A DNA stretch of 64,000 nt from a virus. Shown piece by piece: positions 5,801-61,063 of this stretch (position 1 is the first letter of the stretch; every line of letters starts with the position of its first letter). A program made the translations under genes and the position numbers. Under the pieces are notes generated by a model that had not been told where the DNA came from, made no database searches, and saw nothing but the letters and a program-made list of their open reading frames with translations. Location of the stretch: IMG/VR virus record IMGVR_UViG_3300036945_000847, positions 5,486-69,485 of that record, one strand, 5' to 3'.

Positions 5801-6147
5801 ACTATAATCTGAATGGTCTCAGCACTATCTACAACTCCGTCATTATCAACATCGTATGTAGCTTTGAGCATATCCCCACCACCACCAGCAGCAGGAGTTT
5901 GATTCTCCCATTGTAAACTGGTAGAGTTATAGGTTAGTACTTGTGCGTTGGCAGGGGCACTGATTGTTACATCGTCTAGTCCATTTAAATCTGTTGCCCC
6001 AAACGCAACCAATCGTAAATTTTCAACAATTTTACGCAAGCGGACGGCCTTGTCCCTATACGCTTGGTCACGAGTTTTTTTATAGTTTAAGTCAGCCTCA
6101 TTGGCAGACTTTAATAGTTCGGATGCTATAACGTCTAATGCTGCCAT
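2806..6147 (-). CDS. long tail fibre / receptor-binding protein
   Basis: 1113 aa, Gly/Thr/Asn-rich, duplicated internal modules (TLVAAANNDVLVGLDI.PTFTNGAFTGVT x2; NGGTFTDAGYRLDV.GTARV x2), C-terminal RVYLNGQRL..G.DY module. Confidence 0.75.
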   Translation of the reverse strand: MAALDVIASELLKSANEADLNYKKTRDQAYRDKAVRLRKIVENLRLVAFGATDLNGLDDVTISAPANAQVLTYNSTSLQWENQTPAAGGGGDMLKATYDVDNDGVVDSAETIQIIVRNSTGVTLTKGQVVYLSGATGNRPNAVLSQAHTEATSSKTIGIVVANIANNSDGYVATNGTLHDLDTSAFTAGDAVWLSATTAGAFTSTVPAEPNHTVFIGYVARAHPTQGRLVISIQNGYEFDELHGVLLTSEANNDLVVYETSSALWKNKSISTIFGGTPLVTVPTLAQVTTAGNTTTNFITVGGITANQSVTASGAIARGSYFNQTLVAAANNDVLVGLDINPTFTNGAFTGVTTQDVRIGGTGVVNFQSANGIIRFSGSNWMTVNGTDSRFYLQPTTGAQFRWFTGGSTEIARLYSTGNLVLQNGGTFTDAGYRLDVQGTARVSGVLTLGSTITNGTYTYTLPGATGTLALTSAIPANPVGGTGSTNYIPKFTAASTIGNSNISDSGTLVNIGSDTNISGFISGGSTKVLPAGNTFLGQTFNVAGSANGWGIVSRNTWNFNDDAFTTAGFSAFDNRIITTRSIATTNGFNINQGYVINNGTATENTTVWRALTAGTGNFNSVVLYAGGATGPIANTNSYTNYIVFESAHIPSNNITNFYGLNIADVSASTITRAVNLQISSGTGKYNIYAGGTANNYLNGALGIGTTSLTGYNLRVQKNITGATTSYGIANEGTIQSDVTSQALYHQVVSATAAASFTLNNLVYYSTSQGTFGAGSTVSTQTGFQVNSNLIGATTNYGFKGQIPAGTNRWNLYMDGTAQNYLNGSLSIGTTTTTAKFQVTGSITAASAIARGTYLNNTLVAAANNDVLVGLDIAPTFTNGAFTGVTNYAIRLGANSPTIKGSTDIQLYYGTGKIKIGSELGDYTGGGKIEFSSASNATDLIINYTKRGAARWANTITSTSYDITSESTKYFSIFRTTGNLTLQNGGTFTDAGYRLDVNGTARVQGAVTATLANAFTDSVVYYNSSTGLMTYGTAPIAIQFKIDYDPNIIGVKNGSNVVFTTSATFISTTTRVYLNGQRLTRGVGYDYIETGTNQITFAAAPFATDQLIIEYQI

Positions 6148-8410: not shown

Positions 8411-11400
8411 TTATTTTCCCCCTATGCCTATGAGTTTTTCGTAGTCGCCCTCGTTCAGAACACCCTTTCTCTTCATTTCCATAAGTAGAAAGCGCTCACG
8501 ATTTTTGTAATCATTCTCATAATCCAAGTTAGCAGCACTTCTCGCTTCTGAATACAGAGAGAAGAAGTTTTCTATCTCCTCTTGGGCCAGCAACAAGTCA
8601 CCATTTCTAATATAGGATTGAACCTTACCGATGACACCGTTGTCTACAGCATTGCTAACTTCTTGCATAGCGTAGAATTTCTGTAAACCTCTCTTCTTAA
8701 GCTCTTCACGATACATAGCCAAAGGCAAAGAGTAAGTAGCAGAATACTTCTGTCTGATTTGACTTACAGATTGCTGTTGTCTTGTGTCCTCACTAGAGAA
8801 AGTAAACTCATTCTTTTTAGCATCGGTTACCAACTTAAGCAAATTCATCTTTTCTCCGTCTACTTCGTATACATATTCTGAGCCCGTAAGTTCAGCATAA
8901 GCCAAAGCCAAATTGACCAAGGTAGTATGAATATTCATGGACCTTCTGTACAATTCTTTTTGCTCTTCTACTTGCTTAGTAGTCAATGTAAAACCACCTT
9001 TGTAAACTCTAGATGAGAATGGATTTACCATGGTTTCCAAGTAGGCTTGCGCTGTTCCAGGTTCAGATGTAGTTGTTCTGTACTGCATTTCTTCACCAAA
9101 TGGGCCAATCTGTGCTTCATAATATTCATTCTTAGCCAAGAAGGATACGTTACGATTCAACTTCTGAATTGTATTGGCAAATATTTTACCGACTGAGTTT
9201 GGTAACACTCCATATACACCTTTTTGCATACTTGGTTCGTATTGAGGTTGCAACTGACTAAGACTTTGAATCAATTCTGCATTTCCTTTGCTGATAACAG
9301 ACAAAACAGATGGCGAGAATACAGATAAAGAAGCAGCAGTTGTTCCCGAGGCCCAGTTACTAAATTTGTAACCTTTCTCATCTGTGAACGCTTGATAAAT
9401 TCTAGTTGTACCCTGCAACATTGGAAGTTGTTTTGCACCACTAGTAAGTAACTCGCCAAACAATAGTCCGCCCAAACCATAACTAATCGCTTTCAATTTG
9501 TTCTTAGATTCCATTAACTCTCCTCTGTACGCACCATATGCAGAACTATAAGAACCCAAGGCATAACCGCTGATACCCATATTACCAAAACTATTTATTT
9601 GATCTCCGGGTTTAACCGCACCGCCTCTTCGAATTGCAAAGTTATCTACGGGTTTACCAGAAAGTACAGCTTTCAAATATTCCATGTGAATAGTTCTGTT
9701 ATATGTTCCAGCCTTAAGGTTTGCCGCTGGGTACAATTTATCCTTCTCTTCCCCTGGTTCAGATGAAGCAATTACAGCACCCGCAAGAACCGCTGTTGTA
9801 GCAAATGCAGCCACACCAAACGATACCTCAATCTGAGCGAAATCATAAGTTACTTGGCGCTTCAATTTAACCAACTCCATCTTATCTTTTTCGTAAGCCT
9901 TCTTTTGGGCCTCGGTTGCAAACTTCTTAACAGCCTTTGGGTATTTCTTATCGAATTCATTTTGCTTTTTATCGTAGGCTCTCTGAGACCCATAATAAAT
10001 CGTCAATGCAGCGGGAGGGAAACTCTTCTGAGTTGCAACATACACCACGTTCGCAGGAACCTTCGCAAAAGGAACAACGCTCCAAGCAACAACATCTGCT
10101 GTTTGTAAAGCTCTGAATTTCAAAGAAGTCATCAAATCGAACTTATCATTTCTCTGAATTTCTCTATATGTTTCTTTGATTCCTCCACGAATATTTTTTC
10201 TAATTGAACCGACACCTTTGGCGAACATATTATCACCCAAGAATACTTTTTTCAAACCTTCTTTTTCAAAAGGATTGTCTCCCTCTAGACCAAAGTCAAC
10301 GATGGACAACAATTTCTTAAGAGTATTACGATCGAGCGTCAAATCTCTGTCGGCAATGTAATCTTCAATAAAACCACCCGTGGCATCTCCATTTGCAGTA
10401 TTCTTGAAGTAATCAATCAACGCTCTAGTTGTGTAAGAGTTAGCAAATGCTTTATCGCCTCCTAAAGACATCAAACGACCCGTAACTTCTGTAGCTTGTG
10501 GAGCAAGAGTCCAACCCCAGAATAAACTAGTCAACAATTTGTATGTCTTACCATCGGCAAGTTTCAAATCACCATTTTTGGTTTTATAAATAATTTGATT
10601 AAAGGCATCGGCATACTCTTCATCTGTCATTTCCCACAACTTTTTACCATCAACTTTACCGAAGATAGAACCTAACATCTTGTAAGCCAAGTGAGTATCT
10701 TTGAAGAAGTTTACTTGAGCCAAACCATCGTAGAATTTCTCAATGTAATTAGGATCGCTTTCAAATCCATACTTCAACATCTCTGCCATGTCAGCCAACG
10801 TTTTATCTTTTGAAATAGCAACTGCGTTTGCCCAGTTGGTCAAACTCAAAGTATCTGATTTCACACCACCAATCGCAGCGTCATATGCTTTTCTTGTACC
10901 AGCAACAATAAAATTCTGATTGAACAAAGCATTCTCCACGTTCGAAAGAATAGAAAGTCCAACAGTCTGAATTCCCAAAAGTGCTCGGCTACCACCGGAT
11001 GTTAATCTATCATTCCAAAACTTAGGTTTGAAATTATCTAGGAATTTCATCAATCCCCTTGCGGAATTTCTCAATTCTTTTTCGGCTTTCTTTGCAGCAT
11101 CATAATCTTGGTCAGAAAATGACTCAACAAAAGTGGCAGCAGCAGCATCCAAAGCATCTTTGCTTTGATTCAGTTGGGTAGTCAATCTTTCCAACTCCGC
11201 CTTTTGCTTTTCAGTAAGAGCAATACCCGCTCTTTCCAAACTTTTGGCAATCATTGAACCCATTTTCTTAGGGAACAAATTTCTGCCCAACTGCAACATG
11301 AAACCAGCATTAGATAAAAGCGCACTGAAGGTCACTAGACCGTCTCTCAACTCCTCTTGGGTAGTCACACCCTCCAACTCCTTACGCATTGCAACAGCGG

Positions 11401-14400
11401 CCTCCGCTAGCCCTTTTTCTTCGAATGCATCTGCATATGCTTCAACCATCGACATAGCATCGGTGAAATCCATACCCGCTCTCTGCCAAGTTTCGTATAA
11501 ATCATCCGCTACCTTTTTCTTTTTGATTGTGCGAGTATCAACAGTCAATTCATCAAGATAGTCATCGCTGAAGCCTTCCGATTCGATGGCATTCTTTATT
11601 GTGTTGCGATAGTCTGTTCCAAATACTTCTTTCAAATCTTCAGAACTCGCCATATCCATATTGTACATGGTTCTGAAAATCTCGTAGTGTGTGAAACCCT
11701 GATCGAGCAACTCAGAAACTTGTTCAGCCAAAGGCATCATATAGTTAGAGTTGATGAAGGTTTCAATATCTGAGGCCGTATCTCTTTTGGCTTGATTTAA
11801 TTTCTCGATGCTTTCCACTGCCAACTCTGCGTGGGCTTGCTTGTATTTTGCCTCATCTACATATGGCAAACCCAATTGATTCTTGATATCGCTCAAAAGG
11901 TAACCCTTCTTAACGATATTTTTGAGTGCTTCGGCTTCGGTCAAACCAGACATCAAATCAGATTGAAATTCAGGACTGATGTCACTAACATTCAATTGTG
12001 ATTTACTCTTAACATCGGGACTCAAAGCAGCATCTACAGCATTAATAAGTTCTGGATTGGTACCAGTTTCTTTTGCTTTCAGATACGCTCTAGCAACTTG
12101 ATTAGAAACAACTTGTTTTGCATTTTTAACACTTCCATCGAGGTTAAAACCATAAGTCTCATAATCAAAAGGAGTAGTTCTAGGTAAGTCTTTTGCTTTA
12201 TTTTCTTTGTTGATTTGGTCTACTTCTGCTTGAGTCAATACCTTATTGACTTTCATTTCGCCAGATATAATCCAACTTCCGGTCATATTTGAATTTGTCT
12301 TATACTTATAAGAACCACCCAAAGGTACTTGGTCTGTGATGTGAGCAGTTTTTGCAATCGGTTGACCATTCTTGCCAATTTCTGCTCTTTCATTAGCAAT
12401 TGTTTGCCAATCGATATCATTTCCAACTTCTACTTCTGCCCATACTTGATTGGGAGATCTAAATGAAGGAGCCTTATCGTTTTTGTTTACTTTAGATCCA
12501 ATATGCGTAGCAAGAGGTATGTCACCCGAGTGCCAACCTGGTCTGTATGCCAAAGGCCCTAGTGTTGATTTAACCATAGTCTTACCTTCTTTAGTCTGAG
12601 TCAATGCTCCAGCCTTTGCTTGAATCCACTCGCCCGTAGTTATAGATTGATCCGCACCTACAAACAGAGGGAACAATTCACCAGGGAATCCCTTCTTAAC
12701 CTTGAACAATTTGTAAACGGTCTTAGTTTCAGTAGGAACTTTAACATCATTGTTTATTAATTTCTTAAGGTCGTTTAACTTAGCATCTGATACCTTAGTT
12801 GATAAATCTGTAGAAACAGTGCTTACTTCTTTTGGATTCAATTGTGCTTTAGAACTAAGATTAACTTCTCCATCCTCAATACCAAATTGTTCATCAGCAA
12901 TTTTAAAATCCGCAGTTTTCATTGCTTCTCGTCCTTCTATACTAGGCTGAAAACCAATGCCTTTAGCCACATCTGTAGCAACATTTGTAACTTGTTCCTT
13001 TAGAAGACCCATTGGCTGCGCAATGGCTTTTTTAAATTCTATTTTTTTAGCTCCTTTTAAATCTGTATATCTTAATTCGGGAAGTATTTTAGTTTGAAAA
13101 TCAACTTGCGCATTAGGAGGATAATTTTCCTTGATTTTTTCAACGGCTTCTTCCTTGTAACTTGTTTCGTTCTTAAAATTATCACGAACCAACTGATTTA
13201 TTTTGTCATCGGCATAAACTGCTCCTTCAATCGCACCTTTCTTGGGTTTCTTTGATGGAATCAGATTCTCACTTTTGAATTTCTCAGAAACTGCTTTATA
13301 ATCAACCACCGTCTGTGGAACATTAAACCTTGCGAAATTCTTATTAACATCATATAGACCATCCAAAGCGAAATGTTTAGTACCGGGAAGTTTACCATTG
13401 AACAAGGGGTGAACAAATCCTTTGCTTTGCAAATCTTCAATTTCCTTATCCATTTCGGTTTTTTCTTTGATGTTAATTTCAAAACCACCAACAACAAAAC
13501 CACCCTTATCACCGTTTATTATATCATCGCTCAAAAATGTCTTATCACCATACTCTTTCAAAAAACTTTGAGTATTGAATCCGTTGTTTAACAACAGTCT
13601 TTTGATGGTCGGTGCATTTTTATTTACTTGTAAATCTGCTTTGTCTGGAACCAAACCTTGAAGAATCGCTTTGCGAGAATCAAAAGTTGTATCTTTTAAA
13701 AACTCCTTGGTGAATTGATTAACATCAGTATTTGCATCAATAGAATCAACTAACTTAAATAAAGCAGATAATGTATTTCTTTTTCCGGTTCTGCTATCTT
13801 CTTTCTTCAGGTTTCTCATTGTCTCTTTATTGCTGAGAACCCATTCTTTAAATGAATTTTTAGCAGCTAACAATTCTTGAGGATTAGAAGATAACGATTT
13901 CATACCTCTGATGAAATAATGAGACCCATATGAGTTATTTATAGTAGTATAAGGAGGCTGAATCATAACTAAAACAGCTACTTTATTATCACCATAAAAC
14001 TTTCTTATTGCTGTTGTTGTAGCTTTAACGGTAGATGTATCTACAGAAGCAAAACCAACTCCATCTTCTTGATTTTTAGGATGCGTTAAGAAACCAAAAC
14101 CTCCATAAATAGGATTTCCTTCAGAATCAAGTCCATAACCTGTACCATCGCTTGTTATAATAAATAGTCTACCATTATATTCTTTAGCGATATCCTTAAG
14201 TGATTTAACTGGTAAAGCATTTGAAAAACTTTCCCCATTGAAAACTGCACCTTCGTATGAACCCAACTGCGATTTAGAAGTTGTCGATTCAAAATTATCA
14301 TTGGGATTTACAGAAACTGCAACACCAGCATTGAATTCGTCCGCATTTTCAACAAAGTCAGCAATCTCTTCCTGTTTGATTTCTTGTTCCTTAGGGCTTA

Positions 14401-17400
14401 ATTCAGCAATAGGCTGATCAGTATTCAATACATTTGGGTTAACTATGTATAAGTTCTTCTCCTCTTTGTTCTGTAATCCGTTATCTACGAATTCTACTCC
14501 ATCGAAGCCTGCTGTCTTAAGTGCATCTTTGAACTTTTTAATGTCTGAGGCCGAAAGACTAGTTTCACCCATGTTTGGATCGACCAACTCCATGAACATC
14601 AACTCATCTCTGTTGTACTCTGCATTCTGTGGTTTCAAATCCAAATCTTGCATTATCTTCATTGCCTCATCTTCAGTAGCAATGTTGCCAGTAATTTTGA
14701 ATTCGTTTACAGCATTTGGTTGCTCGCCTTGAGGACTTTGTTCTGCATATCTCTGTGCCTCTTCTTTGTTTTGGCTGACAAACAAAACGCCATCTTGACC
14801 CAACTTACCCAAGATATCAGGAGAACCTCCATGATATACAGGCAAGTCTTCAACTTCACCAACTTGTGCTTTAGTACTTACTTCTTTTTGACCTTCTTCG
14901 GTAGGGACTTGAGTTTCTGGTTGGGGTTCTCTTTGGACCACTTCTTCGCCAACTCTGGCTTCTGGCTGTACAGATACTTCACCTGCTGTTTGCTCTTGAA
15001 CGGCATATTTGTTTAATTTTTTGTTTAACTTACCTGACTTGATAGAATCGGACAAAGAGTTGAAGAAATCAGAAACCTCAACCACATCCGCAATGTCTTT
15101 AAATGGCACAACAGTACCGAAAGTAATTTTAGATACAAACTGATTAATAAGGGCAGCAATCTTCTGCATGAGTGTTGTATCTACCTTGATGTTTTCGTTT
15201 GCCATCAATGCAGTCAACTGCGCAATATACTCCTCACCAATCTCTATACTTTTGTATTGCTTAACGAAATCATTTAACAATTTATTGTCGGAGTCCTTTA
15301 CCAGAGCGGAAAGACGATCTTTGAAATCTGTAAACAATTCAACATCCTCACCAAACACTTTTAACAATGCAGCGTGAGTTACCTCGTGAGCAATCGTAGT
15401 TTCGTTCGCCTTATCTAGGTTGACTTGGATTTCTACAGAGTATGTTCCATCTTGATTTTGTACATAAGCGAAATTACCGAATGACTCTTTCTTACCTTTA
15501 ACATTTTTCATTTTGTCTTGGTATGATTCATCGGTATGTAGAACAATCTTAACGCCAGGCATAATGGTATCCAATACTTTCTGTGCGTTCTTGGCTTCTT
15601 GAACACGAGAATCCAACTCTGCTTGATCACGAGTGCTAGAACTCAACAAATTATTCAACTCATCTTGATTCTCAACAGTAGCCGCATTCAGATTTGTTCC
15701 AGAACTATAAGCCTTAACTTCTTTAGAACCTTTCTTTTCAGCCAAGCCCTTGGTCATTTCTTGAACTGTAGCATTGATATCAGTATCCTTGGTACTTACT
15801 TTAACCAAACCCGTTTCAATGGCTTCTTTATTTCGTTCGATGATTTGAGTTGCTCTCTGCTTATCGGTAACATATTTGAAACCTCCTTTATTCTCGAATA
15901 CTACAAAATCAACATCTTTACCACCAACAAGGTCTTTCATTGTATTCTTCACAGACTCAATCTTACCTTGTACAAAGTCACGAAGTACATTACCTTCGGG
16001 AATAGCCTCTAGATTCTTTTCTAGCTCCTTCTGCTGACCCATAAGGTCAACATAGTACTTACTCTTGTTTTCGTCCTTTATGACGCTCTTGGCGCTTGGA
16101 TACGTTGTTGCAATATCACGTACTCCTTGAGCAATCATTTGGAATTCGCCTGCCTCAATCTGACCAGATTGCAATAGATATTCTGGAATGGCTTGAGCAG
16201 CGTTTGGTCCTATAACATCAATTGCACTAGCAATCATTTGGTCGAGACCTCTCGGACCTATAAATTGTTTGAAAGCATCAATTCTTTTTTCTCTTTGGAC
16301 AGATTCATATCTAGATTTTACTACACCTGCTCCAGACATAACTGCAACACTAGGTAAAATTTCCAAAGCCAATGTTGGTCCTTCTGCCTGAGCATACTCT
16401 GCAAAGGTTGCATCTTTATATTTTGGGTCGTTATTTAATTTAGCCGCAGTATAATTCTGTACCAATTCCGTTACCAATTCGGGAGCATATTCAACCAATG
16501 CTAATTTACCTACATCTTGTGCTACTGCCTTTGCGCTTATACCTCTTGCTGTACTGAAGAATTTTCCAGTAAATGGCATAAATTGTACTGCGTACAACGG
16601 AACCATTTGAGTTTGTATTTTTAATGTCTCCGCTGCTGATTTGCGAGCTTCTATTTCTGAGCCCGTTGCCTCAAATTTATCTTTGTAGTTTTGTCCTACT
16701 TGATCAACAGTATCTTGAGCCCAAGAAACCATTCCACCAATGTATGGATTTGCTGTAAGCACACCAGCAGAAATACCAGTTGCTAAGTTTGGAACTTGGT
16801 CCAAAATAGAACTTAGAGCAGCCTCAGTAGACTCAGAAAAACCCTCAGCATCGGCAAAAGTAAGATTTGACTTCTTATTGTTTACCTCTACATACTTGAC
16901 ATACTTAAGCATATCAGCCAAAGGATTATTTTCATAACCCACTGTGGCGTTAAGTGCTTCAATAGCATTGTCAAATGTTCTTGCTGTTGCAGCTTGTATT
17001 CTATCTCCGGCCCATTCGACCAAAGCACCCGTTTTGAAATCTGCCTCCGACAATCTATTCGCCAAACTCTGAGAACTAAGTCTTTGTGCATCTCTACCAT
17101 CCATAAACTCTTTGTATGCATCTTGATGCATCTGAGTCAACTTCTCAACGGCTGCAAACGACACCTTACCATCCTTGACGGTCGCATCATACTTAGCATA
17201 TAACTTATCTAATTCTGCCTTCTTAGTCTTTTCAATTTCGGCTTTTTTAATTCTGAAATTTTCTTCTGCTCTAGTGACAAGATTGTTTCTCAATTCAATC
17301 CCCTCTGTGGTTGCATCTGAGACCATTCTCGTGTAAACCTCAGAGTCTGCAATCAATTCAGCCTCAGACAAATAACCACCAGTCTTAGAACGAGTTTCAA

Positions 17401-18724
17401 TTTCCTTGGCGAAATTTTCCAATTCAATTTTCTTATTCGTGCTGAAATCTGATATTTCCTTTGTGATATTTTCTATTGATGCATTTTGATATTCTTGCAA
17501 ATTGCTAAAACCATAGTTGGCCAACTTACGAACTTCCAAATCAAACTCTTGCGGAATCTTCGTATAGTCAGTTACAGTCTTATTTTGCTTCGCTAATTTA
17601 TCATTAAATACTTTTTCTTGACCTTCGCTAATCAATCTGTTCTCCGCCTCTTGCTGTACCAATCTAGTCAATCTGCGAGTAACAGTAGGTTGCAATTGCT
17701 CGGGCACTCCGCCCATCGCACTACGAACATACTTTTCAACTTGATTGGAAACCTTAATCGGATCAACTTCAACAACCCCATCGTCATTACTAAACAAAAA
17801 TCCTCCAGGTTGTTTGTTATTGGTAGTTGGCTGAATCCAAACACCATCAGTAATTAGATTTTTTGCATCTTTTGATAATTCCGCATCTAATTTTTGATTA
17901 GCAATTTGTTCTTCCTCGGCAGTTTTAACGGGTCTATTTTCAAACGCAAAATAAGAATTAAACACCTTATCTCTTTCATTCCCTGGAAGATTTGCGCTTT
18001 TAACTACGCTCGGAGCCTTTGGCTTGACCTTTAAACTCTCTGGAGTAAAGCCAGTAGCACTAGTAATTGTGATTCCTGAGTCCCTTAAAGATTTTTGTAC
18101 ATCCGGTTTATCAAAAAGATTCTTACTTTTAGTATAAATATTTTTGCCAAATGAGTCATTGATTTGCTTGATTTGTTCATTGAAATAACCTTTTTCTTTT
18201 AATTCCTTATACTTCGGATCGACAATCAAACGCTGAAAATCCGACAATGCCCTAAACGAGCCCTTGTCTATTTCTCCCTTAAATTCGTTCAGCTTCTGAA
18301 CATACATATCGCTCATCTGCTTATCCTTAGGATTAACAGCGGGCGGCTTTACGGGAGGAGCAAGGTTAGATTGAAATGATTTACCATAAACAGGTACTTC
18401 TGGCATTACATCACCGTAAACGCCAGCCATATTAATACCTTGTGCTTCTGCTCCTTCGGGAGTTACAACTTGATTGTCTTGCGGAATTCCCACCTCTGAG
18501 GCAGTCTCATTCCCAACCGATTGCAAATTCGATAAAGAATCGCCTTCTTCTTTTTTTTTTAAGAACGATGTTGCATTTTCAACACCATACTGAATCTTCA
18601 TGTCCTCATCTGCATCAGGAGATTTTGCTAGATAATCTTCAAAATCTTTCTTAGTTGTAAATGTGTTATTAAATCTGTAATCAGATTTTAATTCATCGTA
18701 GAGTTCTTCGAAGTTATTGGCCAT
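8411..18724 (-). CDS. giant polyvalent ejected (cargo) protein with zincin metallopeptidase and ADP-ribosyltransferase-like modules
   Basis: 3437 aa; HExxH (TIAHEVTHA); PVYHGG..LFVS..AQRYA..GFDGVEF ART-like pattern; LAYRPGWH domain; position downstream of tail genes. Confidence 0.7.
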   Translation of the reverse strand: MANNFEELYDELKSDYRFNNTFTTKKDFEDYLAKSPDADEDMKIQYGVENATSFLKKKEEGDSLSNLQSVGNETASEVGIPQDNQVVTPEGAEAQGINMAGVYGDVMPEVPVYGKSFQSNLAPPVKPPAVNPKDKQMSDMYVQKLNEFKGEIDKGSFRALSDFQRLIVDPKYKELKEKGYFNEQIKQINDSFGKNIYTKSKNLFDKPDVQKSLRDSGITITSATGFTPESLKVKPKAPSVVKSANLPGNERDKVFNSYFAFENRPVKTAEEEQIANQKLDAELSKDAKNLITDGVWIQPTTNNKQPGGFLFSNDDGVVEVDPIKVSNQVEKYVRSAMGGVPEQLQPTVTRRLTRLVQQEAENRLISEGQEKVFNDKLAKQNKTVTDYTKIPQEFDLEVRKLANYGFSNLQEYQNASIENITKEISDFSTNKKIELENFAKEIETRSKTGGYLSEAELIADSEVYTRMVSDATTEGIELRNNLVTRAEENFRIKKAEIEKTKKAELDKLYAKYDATVKDGKVSFAAVEKLTQMHQDAYKEFMDGRDAQRLSSQSLANRLSEADFKTGALVEWAGDRIQAATARTFDNAIEALNATVGYENNPLADMLKYVKYVEVNNKKSNLTFADAEGFSESTEAALSSILDQVPNLATGISAGVLTANPYIGGMVSWAQDTVDQVGQNYKDKFEATGSEIEARKSAAETLKIQTQMVPLYAVQFMPFTGKFFSTARGISAKAVAQDVGKLALVEYAPELVTELVQNYTAAKLNNDPKYKDATFAEYAQAEGPTLALEILPSVAVMSGAGVVKSRYESVQREKRIDAFKQFIGPRGLDQMIASAIDVIGPNAAQAIPEYLLQSGQIEAGEFQMIAQGVRDIATTYPSAKSVIKDENKSKYYVDLMGQQKELEKNLEAIPEGNVLRDFVQGKIESVKNTMKDLVGGKDVDFVVFENKGGFKYVTDKQRATQIIERNKEAIETGLVKVSTKDTDINATVQEMTKGLAEKKGSKEVKAYSSGTNLNAATVENQDELNNLLSSSTRDQAELDSRVQEAKNAQKVLDTIMPGVKIVLHTDESYQDKMKNVKGKKESFGNFAYVQNQDGTYSVEIQVNLDKANETTIAHEVTHAALLKVFGEDVELFTDFKDRLSALVKDSDNKLLNDFVKQYKSIEIGEEYIAQLTALMANENIKVDTTLMQKIAALINQFVSKITFGTVVPFKDIADVVEVSDFFNSLSDSIKSGKLNKKLNKYAVQEQTAGEVSVQPEARVGEEVVQREPQPETQVPTEEGQKEVSTKAQVGEVEDLPVYHGGSPDILGKLGQDGVLFVSQNKEEAQRYAEQSPQGEQPNAVNEFKITGNIATEDEAMKIMQDLDLKPQNAEYNRDELMFMELVDPNMGETSLSASDIKKFKDALKTAGFDGVEFVDNGLQNKEEKNLYIVNPNVLNTDQPIAELSPKEQEIKQEEIADFVENADEFNAGVAVSVNPNDNFESTTSKSQLGSYEGAVFNGESFSNALPVKSLKDIAKEYNGRLFIITSDGTGYGLDSEGNPIYGGFGFLTHPKNQEDGVGFASVDTSTVKATTTAIRKFYGDNKVAVLVMIQPPYTTINNSYGSHYFIRGMKSLSSNPQELLAAKNSFKEWVLSNKETMRNLKKEDSRTGKRNTLSALFKLVDSIDANTDVNQFTKEFLKDTTFDSRKAILQGLVPDKADLQVNKNAPTIKRLLLNNGFNTQSFLKEYGDKTFLSDDIINGDKGGFVVGGFEINIKEKTEMDKEIEDLQSKGFVHPLFNGKLPGTKHFALDGLYDVNKNFARFNVPQTVVDYKAVSEKFKSENLIPSKKPKKGAIEGAVYADDKINQLVRDNFKNETSYKEEAVEKIKENYPPNAQVDFQTKILPELRYTDLKGAKKIEFKKAIAQPMGLLKEQVTNVATDVAKGIGFQPSIEGREAMKTADFKIADEQFGIEDGEVNLSSKAQLNPKEVSTVSTDLSTKVSDAKLNDLKKLINNDVKVPTETKTVYKLFKVKKGFPGELFPLFVGADQSITTGEWIQAKAGALTQTKEGKTMVKSTLGPLAYRPGWHSGDIPLATHIGSKVNKNDKAPSFRSPNQVWAEVEVGNDIDWQTIANERAEIGKNGQPIAKTAHITDQVPLGGSYKYKTNSNMTGSWIISGEMKVNKVLTQAEVDQINKENKAKDLPRTTPFDYETYGFNLDGSVKNAKQVVSNQVARAYLKAKETGTNPELINAVDAALSPDVKSKSQLNVSDISPEFQSDLMSGLTEAEALKNIVKKGYLLSDIKNQLGLPYVDEAKYKQAHAELAVESIEKLNQAKRDTASDIETFINSNYMMPLAEQVSELLDQGFTHYEIFRTMYNMDMASSEDLKEVFGTDYRNTIKNAIESEGFSDDYLDELTVDTRTIKKKKVADDLYETWQRAGMDFTDAMSMVEAYADAFEEKGLAEAAVAMRKELEGVTTQEELRDGLVTFSALLSNAGFMLQLGRNLFPKKMGSMIAKSLERAGIALTEKQKAELERLTTQLNQSKDALDAAAATFVESFSDQDYDAAKKAEKELRNSARGLMKFLDNFKPKFWNDRLTSGGSRALLGIQTVGLSILSNVENALFNQNFIVAGTRKAYDAAIGGVKSDTLSLTNWANAVAISKDKTLADMAEMLKYGFESDPNYIEKFYDGLAQVNFFKDTHLAYKMLGSIFGKVDGKKLWEMTDEEYADAFNQIIYKTKNGDLKLADGKTYKLLTSLFWGWTLAPQATEVTGRLMSLGGDKAFANSYTTRALIDYFKNTANGDATGGFIEDYIADRDLTLDRNTLKKLLSIVDFGLEGDNPFEKEGLKKVFLGDNMFAKGVGSIRKNIRGGIKETYREIQRNDKFDLMTSLKFRALQTADVVAWSVVPFAKVPANVVYVATQKSFPPAALTIYYGSQRAYDKKQNEFDKKYPKAVKKFATEAQKKAYEKDKMELVKLKRQVTYDFAQIEVSFGVAAFATTAVLAGAVIASSEPGEEKDKLYPAANLKAGTYNRTIHMEYLKAVLSGKPVDNFAIRRGGAVKPGDQINSFGNMGISGYALGSYSSAYGAYRGELMESKNKLKAISYGLGGLLFGELLTSGAKQLPMLQGTTRIYQAFTDEKGYKFSNWASGTTAASLSVFSPSVLSVISKGNAELIQSLSQLQPQYEPSMQKGVYGVLPNSVGKIFANTIQKLNRNVSFLAKNEYYEAQIGPFGEEMQYRTTTSEPGTAQAYLETMVNPFSSRVYKGGFTLTTKQVEEQKELYRRSMNIHTTLVNLALAYAELTGSEYVYEVDGEKMNLLKLVTDAKKNEFTFSSEDTRQQQSVSQIRQKYSATYSLPLAMYREELKKRGLQKFYAMQEVSNAVDNGVIGKVQSYIRNGDLLLAQEEIENFFSLYSEARSAANLDYENDYKNRERFLLMEMKRKGVLNEGDYEKLIGIGGK
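14878..15006 (-). CDS. 42-aa basic protein overprinted in an alternative frame of the giant gene (MPFKSKQQVKYLYSQKPELAKKWSKENPNQKLKSLPKKVKKK)
   Basis: Hand translation; A-rich initiation region AAACAAAAAATTAAACAAAT before the ATG; resembles small MPFKS..Q...L....PE.AKKW phage proteins. Confidence 0.65.
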   Translation of the reverse strand: MPFKSKQQVKYLYSQKPELAKKWSKENPNQKLKSLPKKVKKK

Positions 18725-31186: not shown

Positions 31187-33406
31187 TTATTGTTGAGGCA
31201 TCTGTTCTTCACCACCGCCCATGATTTGTTGCATCAAGTCTGCTGGCATTTCTTCTCCATTTGCAGTTGATTTATCAATCATAGTAGAAGCCATCTTACC
31301 TTGAACATCCAATTCTTTTCTGTAATTAGAACCTTCTTCTTTCATTCCTGCTACTTGCTGTTGCTGTGCCATCTGTTGTTCTTGCTGTGCCTGTTGCATC
31401 ATCTGCATCATTGCTTGTTGTTTTTCAGCATCTCTCTTCTTCTTATTCAAAGAGTATTCCAATTCGCTTACCAACTCGGTATACGTCTTGGCTCTTTCAA
31501 TTCGCAAGTAATCCAACATATCAATCATTTGGTTCTGCATAGATGCTTGAGCCAAACTCAACAAACGTTCTCTAGCTGCATCATCAATAAAGTCTTTAAC
31601 TTTGATATAAACGCCCAACTCTTCGAATTGGAAATCTTTAACAATCTTCAACCATTGTTTGCCCCGAGACCCAATCACTGGAATTTCTTCTTCTGATTCA
31701 GCCATCAATGAAACTTTAAATTGATTCAAAGCAAAGGCCAATTCTTTTTGGATGAATTGAATGAATCCTTGGTAAAGATAAGTAGTTCCCAAGTTAGATT
31801 GAGCGATGGTACCGGCTTGTGTTTTAGCACCGACATAACCGCTCTGTTGTCCCAAAGCAATTTTAGGAACAGATACGATTTCTTCCATCAATCTTTCTTC
31901 TTCTTGGCGCAAGTTGATTAGCAAATTCACATTGGGATCAAGCGTCATGTCTACAACTTCGACCATCTTGGCTTCTTGACCAGATACAAAATCTTCTCCG
32001 GTTGCTGAACCATCAGTAATATGAATACCCATTCTTTCGAAATCAGAGATTACATCCTTAGCCGTAGAAGAACCCAACTTCTGTTTGTTAATCAGATATA
32101 CTTTACCCTTACTACGAGTCATCATTTTGGTAATCTCGTTGGTAATGTAATCGATACGATCTTGGTGTTGGTGGAGACGTGCCACTACAGAACGATTCTC
32201 ACCCATAACCATATTCGGAATAAATACTTTTAATGGTAATTCCACATCGCCAGGGTTGTCGTGCTTTCTCACTTGGTTTGTTACCTCCTCAGCATCAACA
32301 ATATACTTATTACCGATTAGAGTTCCTTTGTAAATTGTTTTGGTCCAATACTGACCCTTCCTACCATTTCTAATTTTACTGTAGTGAGTATTACCAAATT
32401 TATCTCCAGACTTCTCATAACCCATATCCTTCATACCAACCCAATAGCCAGTAACACACGCCAAGGTTGGCAAATTGTTTACGTTGAATGCCCAGTTGGT
32501 TGCATAAGGGTGAGTAGTCAAATCGAGCAACTGATATAAGTTGTTCATATTGATTTGCTTGATTTCTTCAATCTCTTCAATAGTGAGTGAGTCTTGATAA
32601 CGTTCGATTATATCAGTTACATTCAACCAATCAATTTTACCTACAAAACGGGCCTCAGAATTGAAATCGTCATCTTTCGCCCTATCAACAATAAGATTAT
32701 GAGGTAGCACAACATCAAAATACTGCTTACCATTTTCTATTCTATTTTCTATTCCTACGTATCCACCTAGCAAGGTATACAAAAAGGCTTGCTTGAATTT
32801 CTCCATGTATGAATTACGATGTAGAATATCCTCACACATTGTCATAGCAATGATTTCAGAATATTCTTTGTAATCGTATTCCATGTAACGATAAATGTCT
32901 TCTGGAACTTCAAACCCTTGTTGGGCATTACCCATGGGATTATATTCAATTCCAAATTGCGCCATCCTCTCAAATAACTCGGGCATATCAAATTTCAATA
33001 GCGCCTGATCGAGCAATTTGGTTTTTTTGTTGATGGTCGCCTTACTCTGAGATTTAACACTTGGTTCAACGTTCTCAATCATCTTGATTGCGTTACCAAC
33101 CATGTAGTCAACTAAGGAGGTTATTTTTTGACCATTGATCCAAACTGTTGGCAAATCACAACCGCTTTGGTCTTGGGTTGTGTAGTAATAATCTTTGTTG
33201 TATTGTCTCCCTAGATAGTAGGTAAACATTCTCACCACTTCATCAATAGGATTTTCTAAATCTTCTTGTTTTCTAATTCTTGAAATGCGGTCGTGTCTCT
33301 TATTGAAATGAGACATGATAAATTTTAGATTCTCCTTATACCAAATTTTGTTTTTTTCACTTTCTGATAAAAACTGCTTTGGTTGATTAGTTATAGTGAA
33401 TGCCAT
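31187..33406 (-). CDS. portal protein
   Basis: 739 aa; N-terminal PKQFLSESEK...W, SVVARL...Q, GQ....G.KT, Gln/Met-rich C-terminal barrel typical of crAss/P22-like portals. Confidence 0.85.
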   Translation of the reverse strand: MAFTITNQPKQFLSESEKNKIWYKENLKFIMSHFNKRHDRISRIRKQEDLENPIDEVVRMFTYYLGRQYNKDYYYTTQDQSGCDLPTVWINGQKITSLVDYMVGNAIKMIENVEPSVKSQSKATINKKTKLLDQALLKFDMPELFERMAQFGIEYNPMGNAQQGFEVPEDIYRYMEYDYKEYSEIIAMTMCEDILHRNSYMEKFKQAFLYTLLGGYVGIENRIENGKQYFDVVLPHNLIVDRAKDDDFNSEARFVGKIDWLNVTDIIERYQDSLTIEEIEEIKQINMNNLYQLLDLTTHPYATNWAFNVNNLPTLACVTGYWVGMKDMGYEKSGDKFGNTHYSKIRNGRKGQYWTKTIYKGTLIGNKYIVDAEEVTNQVRKHDNPGDVELPLKVFIPNMVMGENRSVVARLHQHQDRIDYITNEITKMMTRSKGKVYLINKQKLGSSTAKDVISDFERMGIHITDGSATGEDFVSGQEAKMVEVVDMTLDPNVNLLINLRQEEERLMEEIVSVPKIALGQQSGYVGAKTQAGTIAQSNLGTTYLYQGFIQFIQKELAFALNQFKVSLMAESEEEIPVIGSRGKQWLKIVKDFQFEELGVYIKVKDFIDDAARERLLSLAQASMQNQMIDMLDYLRIERAKTYTELVSELEYSLNKKKRDAEKQQAMMQMMQQAQQEQQMAQQQQVAGMKEEGSNYRKELDVQGKMASTMIDKSTANGEEMPADLMQQIMGGGEEQMPQQ

Positions 33407-58957: not shown

Positions 58958-59253
58958 ATTTTTTCATACCCGAGCCCCGCATAGATATGAGAGTTATCTT
59001 GCTGGCACTCAAGTTTGAATTGATTAATAGGAAACTGATATTCAAAAGTCATCGAGGGGAGAGGGCAGATGTCATCATCCCCTCCTTACGCTTTGCTTTC
59101 AAAACTTATTACAAGGATGGTTATATCATTCTCAAGTCTCGCAAGACTATGAAGATACCTTGTACTTACGATGGGGATGGTGCTTCTGATGAGACAATCG
59201 ATGTGCTATGTGCGTGCATCGAATCTTTGAAATTGAATCACCCCTTTACCTGA
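58906..59253 (+). CDS. hypothetical protein
   Basis: 115-aa ORF filling the gap to the convergent terminase. Confidence 0.4.
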   Translation: MSQIITDDPTITANPIVNFFIPEPRIDMRVILLALKFELINRKLIFKSHRGERADVIIPSLRFAFKTYYKDGYIILKSRKTMKIPCTYDGDGASDETIDVLCACIESLKLNHPFT

Positions 59254-61063
59254 TTTTCACTTTCTTCCAGACTCTTTGGTATCTACCATTGACCAATTCC
59301 AACATTGGGATTTCCTTTTCAACAGCGGTGAATTTGTCTACACTCTTTTTGTACTTCTCTACGATGTTTTTATGCAATATCTCACACGCTACAACACCAT
59401 CAATCAAATCCGTATTCTCTACTAGATAATTCTTGGCCTCCTCGATGAATTCCAAAAACCATATTTCATCTGTGTGCTTACTCAAGTATTCAATTAGATA
59501 TGTATTGCCTCTCTCTGATGTCTGATCACTTTTGTAATAGCCATACGAACCATCGGATTTGCTGAAGCCTTTACCCAAGAAGATGGGTTTCTTGGCTAAC
59601 AGATGCAACTTATTCAATTGTTTGTATCTGTCGAGTACTACACCACCTCGGTTAATCTCTATCATTGCTACAGCATTGTTGTAATACTCTTGTAGCATAA
59701 TCATGTTGTCAACGATTGCATCGGGATCTGAGTCCCTTTCTGTATAATGGGCCACATACCGATTGGTATCGATATCTTTAATTACAATGGCTTGTTTAGA
59801 ACCATCGCCCATATTCTTACTGACAAAAGGAATCGGGTCAATACCAGCGATATATGTATGACCAGGCTCGGGGCTGTGCAAGAACTTCATTCTACTTCTC
59901 AAGTCTGGTCTACGCTCAAGATTTCCATTGACATCGTGATATAGTATAGCGCTGTCGATGGGCGGTCTAGCACCTAGAATAATTCTTTCTTGAGTATTCA
60001 GTTTGTCGATGATGTGCTTGGGCAAATTACCTTCTGCGCTGAATGAGAAGACCTCTTGAATATCCAATGGATACTGCTTGATGAATGAGTTCAAGAATGA
60101 TTTGTCTTCAATCTTATCCAACTTCTCACGGGTCTTGAGAATCCATTCCGTAGCAGCTTTCTCATCGCTCCATCCATTGGGACAAAAGTTTAGAATCTTA
60201 CCCGTCTCCTTACCTTCTTCGTCCAACTCGGGTGCCTCCATAATCCCTTTATTACCGGGGAGAAATAGAGTTAAGATATTCAAGTTCTCAGCATTGTTCC
60301 ATAGATTCATGGCCAACTTCTGACCTACCGATGTAGATTCACCAGCACTACCACCAATGATGATGGGAGCAATCTTAACGAAGCCCGATTTCACACTCGC
60401 TTGAGCAGATTTGTATACTTGATCCGCCTTGGGGTGTAGCATTGATTCATCAATAAAGATATGGGCAGCACGATACGCCTCGAATGCTGTAGGTGTGTCT
60501 ACAGTTTCCTTGGTTACAATCTGACTATCCAATCCAGAAACGGCTCCCGTGCTCTGATTCTTTTGTCCTAGGTGAAGATAACCTTGCTGACGTGTTGAGA
60601 TAACACCAGGGCGAATGTAATCGTCTAGGTGATCGAATACAATCCTCGTTTTGTTCTTAAACAATTCCTCTAGACGCTGTTTATCTGCCGAGGTGATTAG
60701 AGATGTTGAACCTGGATGAGTTAACGCAATCCATACGGGAATGATTCCTCCAAAGACAAGAGATAAACCTACCTCACGCCTCTTGGTTATGAATAAATCG
60801 TTATTGGTTCTCTTGGCCTCTTCGTAGCCTTCGTAAATCAGTTCGTCTATATCTCGCCAAATCGGTCTTTTTTTGTAACCTCTGGCGTCTTTTACTGTGG
60901 CTTGGGTTAATGCAAAGTAGTGTGCTCCAGTCAAACCGAAGCGACCATTCCTCCAATAATCCAACTCTTGACCCCACCATAAATCCTTTTCCTTAGCCGT
61001 GGCTGTAGGAGATAGACCATGCTTGGACCACCACTCGTCATAGACAAACTTACTCTTTTTCAT
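59246..61063 (-). CDS. terL: terminase large subunit
   Basis: TKRREVGLS Walker A variant, IFIDES Walker B, AGIDP RNase H motif, IEINRG. Confidence 0.88.
   Translation of the reverse strand: MKKSKFVYDEWWSKHGLSPTATAKEKDLWWGQELDYWRNGRFGLTGAHYFALTQATVKDARGYKKRPIWRDIDELIYEGYEEAKRTNNDLFITKRREVGLSLVFGGIIPVWIALTHPGSTSLITSADKQRLEELFKNKTRIVFDHLDDYIRPGVISTRQQGYLHLGQKNQSTGAVSGLDSQIVTKETVDTPTAFEAYRAAHIFIDESMLHPKADQVYKSAQASVKSGFVKIAPIIIGGSAGESTSVGQKLAMNLWNNAENLNILTLFLPGNKGIMEAPELDEEGKETGKILNFCPNGWSDEKAATEWILKTREKLDKIEDKSFLNSFIKQYPLDIQEVFSFSAEGNLPKHIIDKLNTQERIILGARPPIDSAILYHDVNGNLERRPDLRSRMKFLHSPEPGHTYIAGIDPIPFVSKNMGDGSKQAIVIKDIDTNRYVAHYTERDSDPDAIVDNMIMLQEYYNNAVAMIEINRGGVVLDRYKQLNKLHLLAKKPIFLGKGFSKSDGSYGYYKSDQTSERGNTYLIEYLSKHTDEIWFLEFIEEAKNYLVENTDLIDGVVACEILHKNIVEKYKKSVDKFTAVEKEIPMLELVNGRYQRVWKKVKIR

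Follow-up and report, generated by a model that had tools for sequence, protein, structure and literature searches.

The window, a stretch of 64,000 nucleotides of viral DNA, carries a giant gene that encloses a 42-codon ORF on the same strand (Table 1). The small ORF lies in the +1 frame relative to the giant ORF, the T of its ATG being the third base of a giant-frame codon TAT, and it closes with TAA at 14878-14880; its start, strand and translation are identical to those of the original prediction. Over the same interval the giant frame reads YAVQEQTAGEVSVQPEARVGEEVVQREPQPETQVPTEEGQKEV, which corresponds to the low-complexity linker that had been described there. The HExxH motif placed upstream of the linker is also present, although no family model matched the module in Pfam, nor was one found by PDB sequence search. 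The designation of the downstream module as ART-like was not borne out, since searches of Pfam and of PDB sequences with giant residues 1283-1520 gave nothing significant. No family was recovered by a Pfam search of the giant protein, the only PHROG match of which is to phrog_30118 (function unknown) at residues 2000-2193, and blastn of 3 kb around the nested site against phages gave no match. The giant protein is modular and the order of its modules differs among relatives, with the HExxH module lying before the nested gene in the window and after the small gene in seven relatives.

Table 1. Features of the nested locus, with positions in the window
Feature	Position	Strand	Description or evidence
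Nested small gene	14878..15006	-	Sequence, family (phrog_1375), dN/dS 0.13, third-position phase, AF2 model, charge
Putative translation initiation region	15007..15036	-	A-rich, SD-less, inside giant-gene coding sequence
Two small-frame TAA stops	15013-15015 (-9), 15025-15027 (-21)	-	Read directly
Giant host gene	8411..18724	-	3437-aa ORF, structural module, complete 69.5-kb phage genome
Giant-frame linker	14879..15007	-	43 aa (giant residues 1240-1282), acidic, low-complexity; 10 D+E, 3 K+R, pI 4.1, net charge -7
HExxH motif HEVTH	15374..15388	-	Giant residues 1113-1117, module upstream of nested gene; read directly

The product of the nested ORF is strongly basic, with 14 lysine and arginine and two aspartic and glutamic acid residues (pI 10.3, net charge +12), and direct reading of its sequence reveals no cysteine and no hydrophobic stretch. 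An AF2 model built on 66 sequences (pLDDT 88.7) predicts two helices (residues 6-15 and 17-26) ahead of a tail rich in lysine. A resemblance to small basic MPFKS-type proteins, found as free-standing genes in environmental phages, had been suggested from recall, and homologues are indeed abundant. A peptide search of a collection of 5.8 billion proteins gave 29 matches of 40-54 aa, all starting with MPFKS (best E 1.7e-14), and a search of 1.84 billion proteins gave 97 representatives at E<=1e-3, most of them 40-80 aa long and matched at the N-terminus. Overall, homologues number in the hundreds, with at least 386 viral contigs matching, and include free-standing genes. The family start motif is MPFKSxxQ, and the invariant or near-invariant columns of two alignments (A1 and A2) comprise an N-terminal M-P-F-K/R-S-x-x-Q, P17, A20 and an L-P that is followed by the lysine-rich tail; the window peptide carries all of them. 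The phrog_1375 profile matches the window peptide at E 5.5e-4, over residues 3-29 only, and matches 27 of 66 relatives with a best E of 2.1e-8. The best fold matches in BFVD are uncharacterised phage proteins of 44 aa (TM 0.79-0.80). By sequence and profile similarity, motif, size and predicted fold, the window peptide is a member of the MPFKS family, about phrog_1375.

The expectation that standard gene callers would miss the nested gene stands in part: no 100% match to the window peptide is present in the 5.8-billion-protein collection, but relatives 79-89% identical to it have been called as genes on other contigs, where they may be nested or free-standing. No database protein matches any of the locus peptides exactly. 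Pfam searches of the window peptide and 66 relatives returned nothing, and PDB searches with the peptide yielded nothing below E 0.07 by sequence profile and a best E of 5 by fold. Against cultured phages, tblastn of the window peptide gave no match and a free-standing member gave only partial, weak actinophage matches (E 1e-3 to 0.6), the contexts of which (Barnyard gp9, FlowerPower gp48) are leads only. A profile search of genome contigs recovered 18 loci, from which no reliable host can be named because all are on MAG contigs. A language-model search offered a further, weak lead: DUF3008 (PF11450) is present in 15% of the members of the closest named Atlas cluster, which has a score of 0.84. 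This identity was rejected, as no member of A2 matches the domain at E<=1 and nothing in the genome of the window does so at E<=10. In literature outside subscription journals, no paper on DUF3008 and no report of the MPFKS family or of the nested arrangement was found.

Comparison of dN/dS in both frames across homologous giant genes had been proposed as a check on the nested gene, and it separates the frames clearly. Over the overlap, the small frame has a dN/dS of 0.13, against 1.69 for the giant frame and 1.42 for the unused third frame, values drawn from 465 pairs of 31 distinct sequences that are related, so that the pairs are not independent, and with a small-frame pS (0.68) that is near saturation. 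Entropy at small-frame codon positions 1, 2 and 3 is 0.62, 0.45 and 0.98, respectively. When the window is compared with the collinear locus L100, differences at giant codon positions 1/2/3 number 80/61/115 upstream, 13/1/2 within the overlap and 55/41/131 downstream. Among 40 listed variant places, 14 lie inside the ORF, 10 of them at third positions of the small frame, and 26 lie in the flanks, 24 of them at third positions of the giant frame; the flank variants keep the giant-frame phase up to 2-5 nt from the small stop (places 14873 and 14876). Contigs at least 80% alike, sought in four metagenome runs, pile up only over about 14881-15015, to a depth of 100-450 compared with 3-10 in the flanks, with loose contig ends at 15006; homology between contigs breaks exactly at both borders of the small ORF. 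Selection on the small protein keeps this island of 130 nt almost identical in many phages that occur together. Judged from these substitutions, the small frame is evidently under strong purifying selection. Over the same 129 nt the giant frame, which is free of stops where four to six would be expected, is evidently selected for that freedom only. The giant-frame value lies close to that of the unused frame, and the acidic linker of 43 aa thus appears, as had been proposed, to be a by-product of the lysine-rich small gene, since the AAG codons of the latter, read one base on, give GAA.

Related viral loci (n=80) were retrieved from viral sequences with MPFKS-type patterns, and the invariance of MPFKS among them is therefore partly a matter of ascertainment; nevertheless, the protein search that gave the 97 representatives, and which is free of that bias, still shows the motif. 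In 33 of the 80 loci the small ORF lies wholly within an ORF of at least 700 aa, always in the same relative frame, the host ORF being +2 relative to the small ORF in all 33. Locus L045, whose 701-aa host frame is GC-rich, arginine-rich and looks spurious, was left out of the nested set and of the statistics. In a further 14 loci the small ORF is enclosed, in the same relative frame, by a gene of 378-430 aa at the position of the scaffold gene, and PHROG searches of these host proteins gave no match. The small gene is free in 28 loci, where the would-be host frame holds 1-27 stops, and five loci are ambiguous in arrangement. In addition, an independent sample reached through another module of the giant protein has the small ORF nested in the same frame in nine of 14 loci. 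Closure of the alternative frame in related giant genes had been named as evidence that would count against the nested gene; the frame is kept open in those 33 and nine loci. The small gene is not universal among relatives of the giant gene, as it is absent from three more distant ones, which share 43-57% identity in the query module: neither their giant genes nor their records as a whole contain it, and one of these records is 98% complete.

Gene order in these loci shows the settings in which the cassette occurs: free just after a portal gene, within a gene at scaffold position, and between giant-gene modules whose arrangement varies. In L031 the order is portal, small gene, scaffold and major head, and in L068 a portal-type gene (phrog_449) is followed by an ORF of 99 aa and then by the small gene. 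L016 and L054 have terminase, portal, the host gene holding the small ORF and a capsid-like gene in that order. Because the cassette turns up in host genes of two unrelated kinds, as well as between reordered modules, it can serve as a natural marker of domain shuffling in giant phage proteins and may even be an agent of it.

The nested ATG follows an A-rich run, as do other starts in the window, in agreement with the original prediction. Adenine makes up 60% of the 30 nt 5' of the ATG, occupying -3, -6 and -11 to -16, and no Shine-Dalgarno sequence is present there; only 0.77% of 30-nt windows across the giant gene are equally A-rich. The 38 gene starts in the window have a mean of 40% A, with 70% at the gene in capsid position. 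When 31 nested loci, which are mutually related and hence not independent samples, were compared with 2930 same-frame control ATGs, A was enriched at -14 to -11, -3 and -6. Local MFE at the nested start is -5.0, against a giant-gene mean of -8.66, so that local structure there is weak. In L015, L024 and L077, AGGAGG-type motifs are present 5-8 nt 5' of the small ATG. The A-rich region of the nested gene matches the initiation determinants of Flavobacterium johnsoniae as they are given in section 15 of PMC6847099. Judged by sequence, this candidate region may provide the nested gene with start signals of its own.

Several other explanations for these data have been weighed. A non-coding ORF could arise by chance in an alternative frame of a long AT-rich gene, and by size alone the nested ORF is not beyond chance, because eight ATG-initiated ORFs of at least 42 aa, itself included, are present in the alternative sense frames of the giant gene. 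It stands above chance because of its homology and its substitution pattern: the existence of hundreds of homologues, among them free-standing genes, together with the low small-frame dN/dS, the switch of third-position phase at the ORF borders and the lack of any PHROG match below E 0.01 for the other seven ORFs, refutes an origin by chance, which is scarcely credible. Conservation could alternatively be due to the giant linker or to an RNA or DNA element, to which the small ORF would be incidental. A nucleotide island that is sharply bounded and common to many phages is what a cis element might produce, and the giant frame is indeed kept open. However, variable sites cluster at the third positions of the small frame and are fewest at those of the giant frame, the giant frame matches the unused frame in apparent dN/dS, the island is bordered by the ATG and the stop, and the same peptide is encoded free-standing elsewhere with many stops in the other frames, all of which make this explanation very improbable.

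The MPFKS segment might also be made as part of a large protein, either through a frameshift that yields a truncated N-terminal product ending in a basic tail, or as an in-frame fusion. There are precedents for the latter, as P0032 (1075 aa) has the peptide in frame at its C-terminus with 93% identity and the module stands at the N-terminus of longer chains in P0113, P0124, P0111, P0084, L043, L058 and L063, while the A6 run upstream of the nested ATG might be thought to favour the former. P0032 may, however, reflect an assembly indel. Entry into the small frame by frameshifting from the giant frame is unlikely because two TAA codons close the small frame just before the ATG, after the A run, and a small-frame stop is found no more than 30 nt upstream of the ATG in 28 of 32 nested loci. 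Moreover, the small-gene ATG is invariant among loci, and production as part of a large protein is accordingly judged very improbable, if a little less so than a linker or cis element. Finally, the giant ORF could be two genes on either side of a free small gene that were fused through an error of sequencing or assembly, and the flanking modules do differ among relatives as those of separate genes might. Against this, the giant frame is open across the cassette in the 33 of 80 and nine of 14 independent contigs, the flank variants hold to the giant-frame phase almost as far as the small stop, and the probability that the giant frame would be open by chance, given the small protein and the codon usage of the locus, has a median of 0.001 and a maximum of 0.013 per locus; such an artefact can hardly be credited.

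A nested coding gene with a by-product linker, forming a true dual-coding stretch within a giant gene of the virion module, is very probably the correct explanation on the sequence evidence, and the original interpretation is supported. The small gene would be the older partner, over which the large genes grew. Ribosomes would start its translation independently, at the internal ATG 15006 of the late structural mRNA, probably with the A-rich, SD-less region, of the type found in Bacteroidia, as the signal. No RNA sequencing runs holding the stretch are listed. From gene position and charge only, a role in head morphogenesis or within the capsid is possible, if somewhat doubtful, for the basic product with its two predicted helices, whose binding partner would be DNA or an acidic constituent of the head. 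More speculatively, and rather unlikely, the 130-nt island could be a joint for homologous recombination in the exchange of giant modules, a suggestion prompted by the break in homology at both borders and by the different order of the HExxH module in seven relatives, and the basic peptide and acidic linker may bind each other. Through such binding the peptide would be carried into the capsid by the giant protein, or by the host protein at scaffold position.

The locus provides a case of well-supported dual coding in a tailed phage that annotation misses. It also offers a natural test case for SD-less internal initiation inside a translated gene. In addition, it draws attention to an abundant and uncharacterised family of small proteins from environmental phages, adjoining portal, scaffold and capsid genes, as a target for functional work.

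Genes embedded within other genes are known in tailed phages from the spanins, in which Rz1 of lambda lies inside Rz and 18.7 of T7 inside 18.5, and spanin pairs are embedded, overlapped or separate in different phages. As in the embedded spanins, the small gene here lies wholly within a larger one, on the same strand and in the +1 frame, in a dsDNA phage, and the variety of spanin arrangements is much like the nested and free states of the MPFKS gene. The hosts of the MPFKS gene differ, being giant modular genes of the virion module and genes at scaffold position, not a lysis gene. Rz1, a lipoprotein, has a signal sequence and the cysteine of a lipobox; an identity as an Rz1-like o-spanin was rejected for the MPFKS peptide, which has no cysteine or hydrophobic segment and whose host genes are in the virion module. 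In PhiX174, gene E lies inside D and gene B inside A, and E is considered the younger of its pair, having arisen by overprinting. The likeness here is to an out-of-frame small gene with its own start inside a morphogenesis (scaffold) gene, for which L016 and L054 may be compared. In contrast to E, the embedded MPFKS gene is widespread and probably older, and it is the linker of the large gene that is the unconstrained frame; furthermore, the phages bearing it are tailed dsDNA phages with genomes of 40-70 kb and not microviruses. The usual direction of overprinting is thus reversed, with the embedded gene conserved and widespread and the inter-module linker of the giant gene as the passenger frame.

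Overlapping genes in viruses have been reviewed (PMC8227390). Members of phrog_1375 are likewise small phage proteins, with a profile that matches the window peptide, but PHROGs gives no function for them and makes no mention of nesting. The giant host resembles the polyvalent proteins known from phages and conjugative elements (PMC5512222) in that it is very large and multi-modular, with modules rearranged among relatives. It differs in that no Pfam domain was detected in it, its HExxH motif having been recognised by direct reading, and a text search of that article gave no occurrence of the term "overlapping gene". Embedded phage genes are a known theme, to which the MPFKS gene adds a new variant with a conserved embedded partner.

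The original prediction of a nested gene for a basic protein, with the linker of the giant protein (the giant-frame reading across the small ORF) as its by-product, is supported by homology, nesting and selection evidence. The sequence confirms that an ATG on the strand of the giant gene opens a 42-codon ORF in a shifted frame (+1 of the giant gene; translation MPFKSKQQVKYLYSQKPELAKKWSKENPNQKLKSLPKKVKKK). The window constitutes most of a complete virus record of 69,485 bp with direct terminal repeats, in which this ORF, or cassette, occurs once. An ORF of 42 aa is by size alone unremarkable in the giant gene, whose two alternative sense frames contain eight ATG-initiated ORFs of at least 42 aa; the other seven gave no match below E 0.01 in a PHROG search. 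An antisense TTG-initiated ORF of 122 aa (window 14648-15016, plus strand) also spans the small gene and is probably not a gene, since most related loci have closed antisense frames over the cassette.

Locations of features in the window and in related viral loci (L handles)
Feature	Location	Strand	Basis
Giant gene, 3437-aa ORF	8411..18724	minus	
Small ORF, 42 codons	ATG at 15006, TAA at 14878-14880	minus	sequence
Portal gene	31187..33406	minus	PHROG match
Large terminase gene	59246..61063		PHROG match
DNA polymerase gene	window		PHROG match
Primase/helicase gene	window		PHROG match
Gene starts with TTTG motif	8387, 21001, 27068, 28000, 31143, 33406	minus	
Gene starts with TTTG motif	36886, 38254	plus	
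Strong SD-like motifs	L015:~5985-6000, L024:~5985-6000, L077:~3460-3474		
Putative scaffold-position covering genes	L016:5529-6665, L054:5931-7100		
Same scaffold-position group	L017-L019, L029, L038, L053, L055, L060, L062, L074, L079, L080		

The peptide had been likened to free-standing small basic phage proteins, and such a family was recovered when homologues were sought. A word-indexed protein search yielded 29 matches of 40-54 aa, every one starting MPFKS, with identity down to 57%, and HMMER, run exhaustively over 1.84 billion representatives, yielded 97 at E<=1e-3, mostly of 40-80 aa and matching at the extreme N-terminus. In an alignment of 66 relatives, S5 and Q8 are invariant, and conservation is 90% or more at M1, P2, F3, P17, A20, L35 and P36. 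The PHROGs family phrog_1375, for which no function is given, matches the query at E 5.5e-4 and also 27 of the 66 relatives; Pfam searches with the peptide and these relatives found no family, and DUF3008, a weak Atlas lead, was rejected after a failed family model test. AlphaFold2 on the 66-row alignment predicted, with confidence, helices at residues 6-15 and 17-26 followed by a lysine-rich tail (pLDDT 88.7). No similar structure was found in the PDB, and the best BFVD matches were 44-aa uncharacterised phage proteins (TM 0.79-0.80).

The module also forms the N-terminus of longer chains (database proteins P0113, P0124, P0111 and P0084; loci L043, L058 and L063). In L043:5887-6747, L058:5995-6561 and L063:4922-5488 the MPFKS N-terminus is followed by glycine-rich continuations, with protein lengths of 188 aa and, counted from stop to stop, as much as 286 aa; in these phages a larger protein can include the module as a domain. 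In the database protein P0032 (1075 aa) a 1033-aa chain carries the peptide (93% identity) in frame at its C-terminal end, which reflects either an in-frame fusion that exists in nature or an indel in the assembly immediately ahead of the ATG.

Viral contigs scanned against the family alignment gave 600 candidate stretches. Of these, 386 were confirmed, and the top 80 by likeness to an alignment of the closest relatives of the window were retained. Among these 80 loci, in which group shares are not population frequencies, the small ORF lies entirely within an ORF of at least 700 aa in 33, lies within a 378-430-aa gene in 14, is free-standing in 28, and is ambiguous in five (short covering frames or, in L045, a GC-rich frame of spurious appearance). 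Many of the covering ORFs of at least 700 aa are clipped by the 6-kb flank, and the longest extend past 3100 aa. All nested cases, the window included, have the covering frame at +2 from the small ORF; the +2 frame of free-standing copies contains 1-27 stops. An independent sample of 14 loci was found with giant protein aa 1950-2250 as query and contains two apparent duplicate pairs (L104/L105 and L107/L111). In nine of the 14 the small ORF is nested within the giant one with the frame relation unchanged, and these nine are all the loci of at least 63% identity with the upstream region present. The alternative frame is thus kept open in related giant genes, as expected of a nested gene. Three giant genes that are more distant (43-57% identical over aa 1950-2250) lack the small ORF, and no family member was found anywhere in the whole records G001 (that of L109), G002 and G003, one of them 98% complete. 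Thus the nested gene, although common in the window's lineage, is not universal.

Selection in the two frames was compared over the first 30 codons, ungapped, of 31 distinct nested sequences. Column entropy at small-frame codon positions 1/2/3 is 0.62/0.45/0.98, and therefore the giant-frame third position is the least variable. A dN/dS comparison had been proposed at the outset; by the Nei-Gojobori method over 465 pairs the small frame gives 0.13 (mean amino-acid identity 0.68), the giant frame 1.69 (0.46) and the third frame, which is unused, 1.42 (0.46). For the scaffold-position class (11 distinct sequences) dN/dS is 0.32 in the small frame and 0.89 in the giant-equivalent frame. The related locus L100 is collinear with the window on either side of the small ORF; differences at giant-frame positions 1/2/3 number 80/61/115 upstream, 13/1/2 in the overlap (nine synonymous and five non-synonymous small-frame codon changes) and 55/41/131 downstream.

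Contigs from four metagenome runs were aligned to 14300-15600 at 80% likeness. Summed depth reaches 100-450 only over ~14872-15003, with 3-10 in the flanks; many contigs align solely over 14881/14891..15006/15015, and their unlike continuations begin at 15006, the ATG. Among 40 of the 77 variant places, 10 of 14 within the small ORF fall at small-frame third positions and 24 of 26 in the flanks at giant-frame third positions, so the coding phase switches at the small ORF borders. In three of the four runs one contig carries five extra letters directly upstream of the ATG (15006/15007), which fits flanks variable right up to the start codon.

When the small protein of each of 32 loci was randomly re-coded with the giant-gene codon usage of its own locus (2000 trials), the +2 frame contained 3.6-13 stops on average and was open in at most 1.3% of trials per locus (median 0.1%); both readings are therefore maintained. 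What is preserved in the small reading is its sequence, in the large reading only its continuity. Together with the giant-frame dN/dS, this rarity of chance openness supports the linker being a by-product. The linker is acidic (10 D+E, pI 4.1) and the peptide opposite it basic (14 K, pI 10.3), because AAG (Lys) one base on reads GAA (Glu).

The small reading might be entered by frameshifting or by initiation. In the window, TAA codons at -9 and -21 upstream of the ATG close the small frame; 28 of 32 nested loci have a small-frame stop no more than 30 nt from the ATG, and 28 of 32 have no alternative in-frame start between the upstream stop and the ATG. This makes frameshift entry unlikely and initiation at the ATG the probable route of expression. 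The A-rich run before it does resemble other gene starts in the window, which are A-rich and carry an SD-like motif in only 1 of 38 cases: the 30 nt upstream are 60% A, in the top 0.77% of giant-gene windows, with A at -3, -6 and -11 to -16. In Flavobacterium johnsoniae, A at -3, -6, -12 and -13 are described as positive determinants of SD-less initiation in PMC6847099. At 31 nested loci A has a frequency of 0.71-0.87 in -14..-11, 0.68 at -3 and 0.58 at -6, against 0.33-0.41 at 2930 other same-frame ATGs of those giant genes (Mann-Whitney p 6e-9, loci non-independent); the giant-frame amino acids upstream of the cassette are mostly unrelated across loci. Folding around the nested ATG is weak (-5.0 kcal/mol, versus a gene mean of -8.66 and -4.15 for 18 real gene starts), and 15% of giant-gene windows fold as weakly.

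Three loci have AGGAGG or AAGGAGG motifs 5-8 nt before the nested ATG, within giant-gene coding sequence; their other genes, few per locus, rarely have AGGAGG-type motifs. Many gene starts in the window have TTTG-containing motifs shortly upstream, for example TATCTTTG, AAATTTG and TATATTTG. These motifs, together with the scarcity of SD-like ones, fit promoters of the Bacteroidota type and SD-less translation, and suggest a Bacteroidota host.

Free-standing copies occur between the portal gene and the scaffolding and major head protein genes, in that order (L031), ahead of the major head gene (L059), and after a connector gene (phrog_449) and an ORF of 99 aa (L068). The 378-430-aa covering gene of L016 and L054 has the portal gene (phrog_6547, also the portal family of the window) on one side and a capsid-size structural gene (phrog_13704) on the other, and by gene order would occupy the scaffold position. 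Such covering genes are acidic, share a conserved M-[AS]-E start placed 23-66 codons upstream of the nested ATG, and contain the small gene in their 5' part in the same relative frame; their proteins had no PHROG match. The window's lineage has the giant gene in this covering role, within the same minus-strand block as the portal gene. Gene position, charge and neighbouring genes tentatively suggest that the small protein might act in head morphogenesis or inside the capsid, a role that is possible and rather unlikely.

The giant proteins have little in common outside the cassette, and in blastp most hosts align with the window protein only around aa 1209-1319. The HExxH module (window aa 978-1238) precedes the cassette in the window and follows it in seven loci (L005, L006, L012, L022, L024, L028 and L030); L102 and L103 have the window's upstream module and lack its downstream one, and L100 and L025 have its downstream module. 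Homology therefore breaks at both small ORF borders, which raises the idea that the cassette could be a recombination joint for giant-protein modules; taken jointly with further proposals, this is improbable.

A literature search on the MPFKS family or the nested arrangement found no paper, most subscription journals lying outside its coverage. An Rz1-type spanin was rejected, the small protein having neither cysteine nor hydrophobic segment. Embedded out-of-frame genes are classical in phages, as with E in D and B in A of phiX174 and Rz1 in Rz of lambda, and the present arrangement resembles these. Four features set it apart: wide occurrence and conservation belong to the embedded partner, the covering frame codes for a linker without sequence constraint in a giant modular protein, host genes of two unrelated kinds contain the cassette, and initiation is apparently SD-less.
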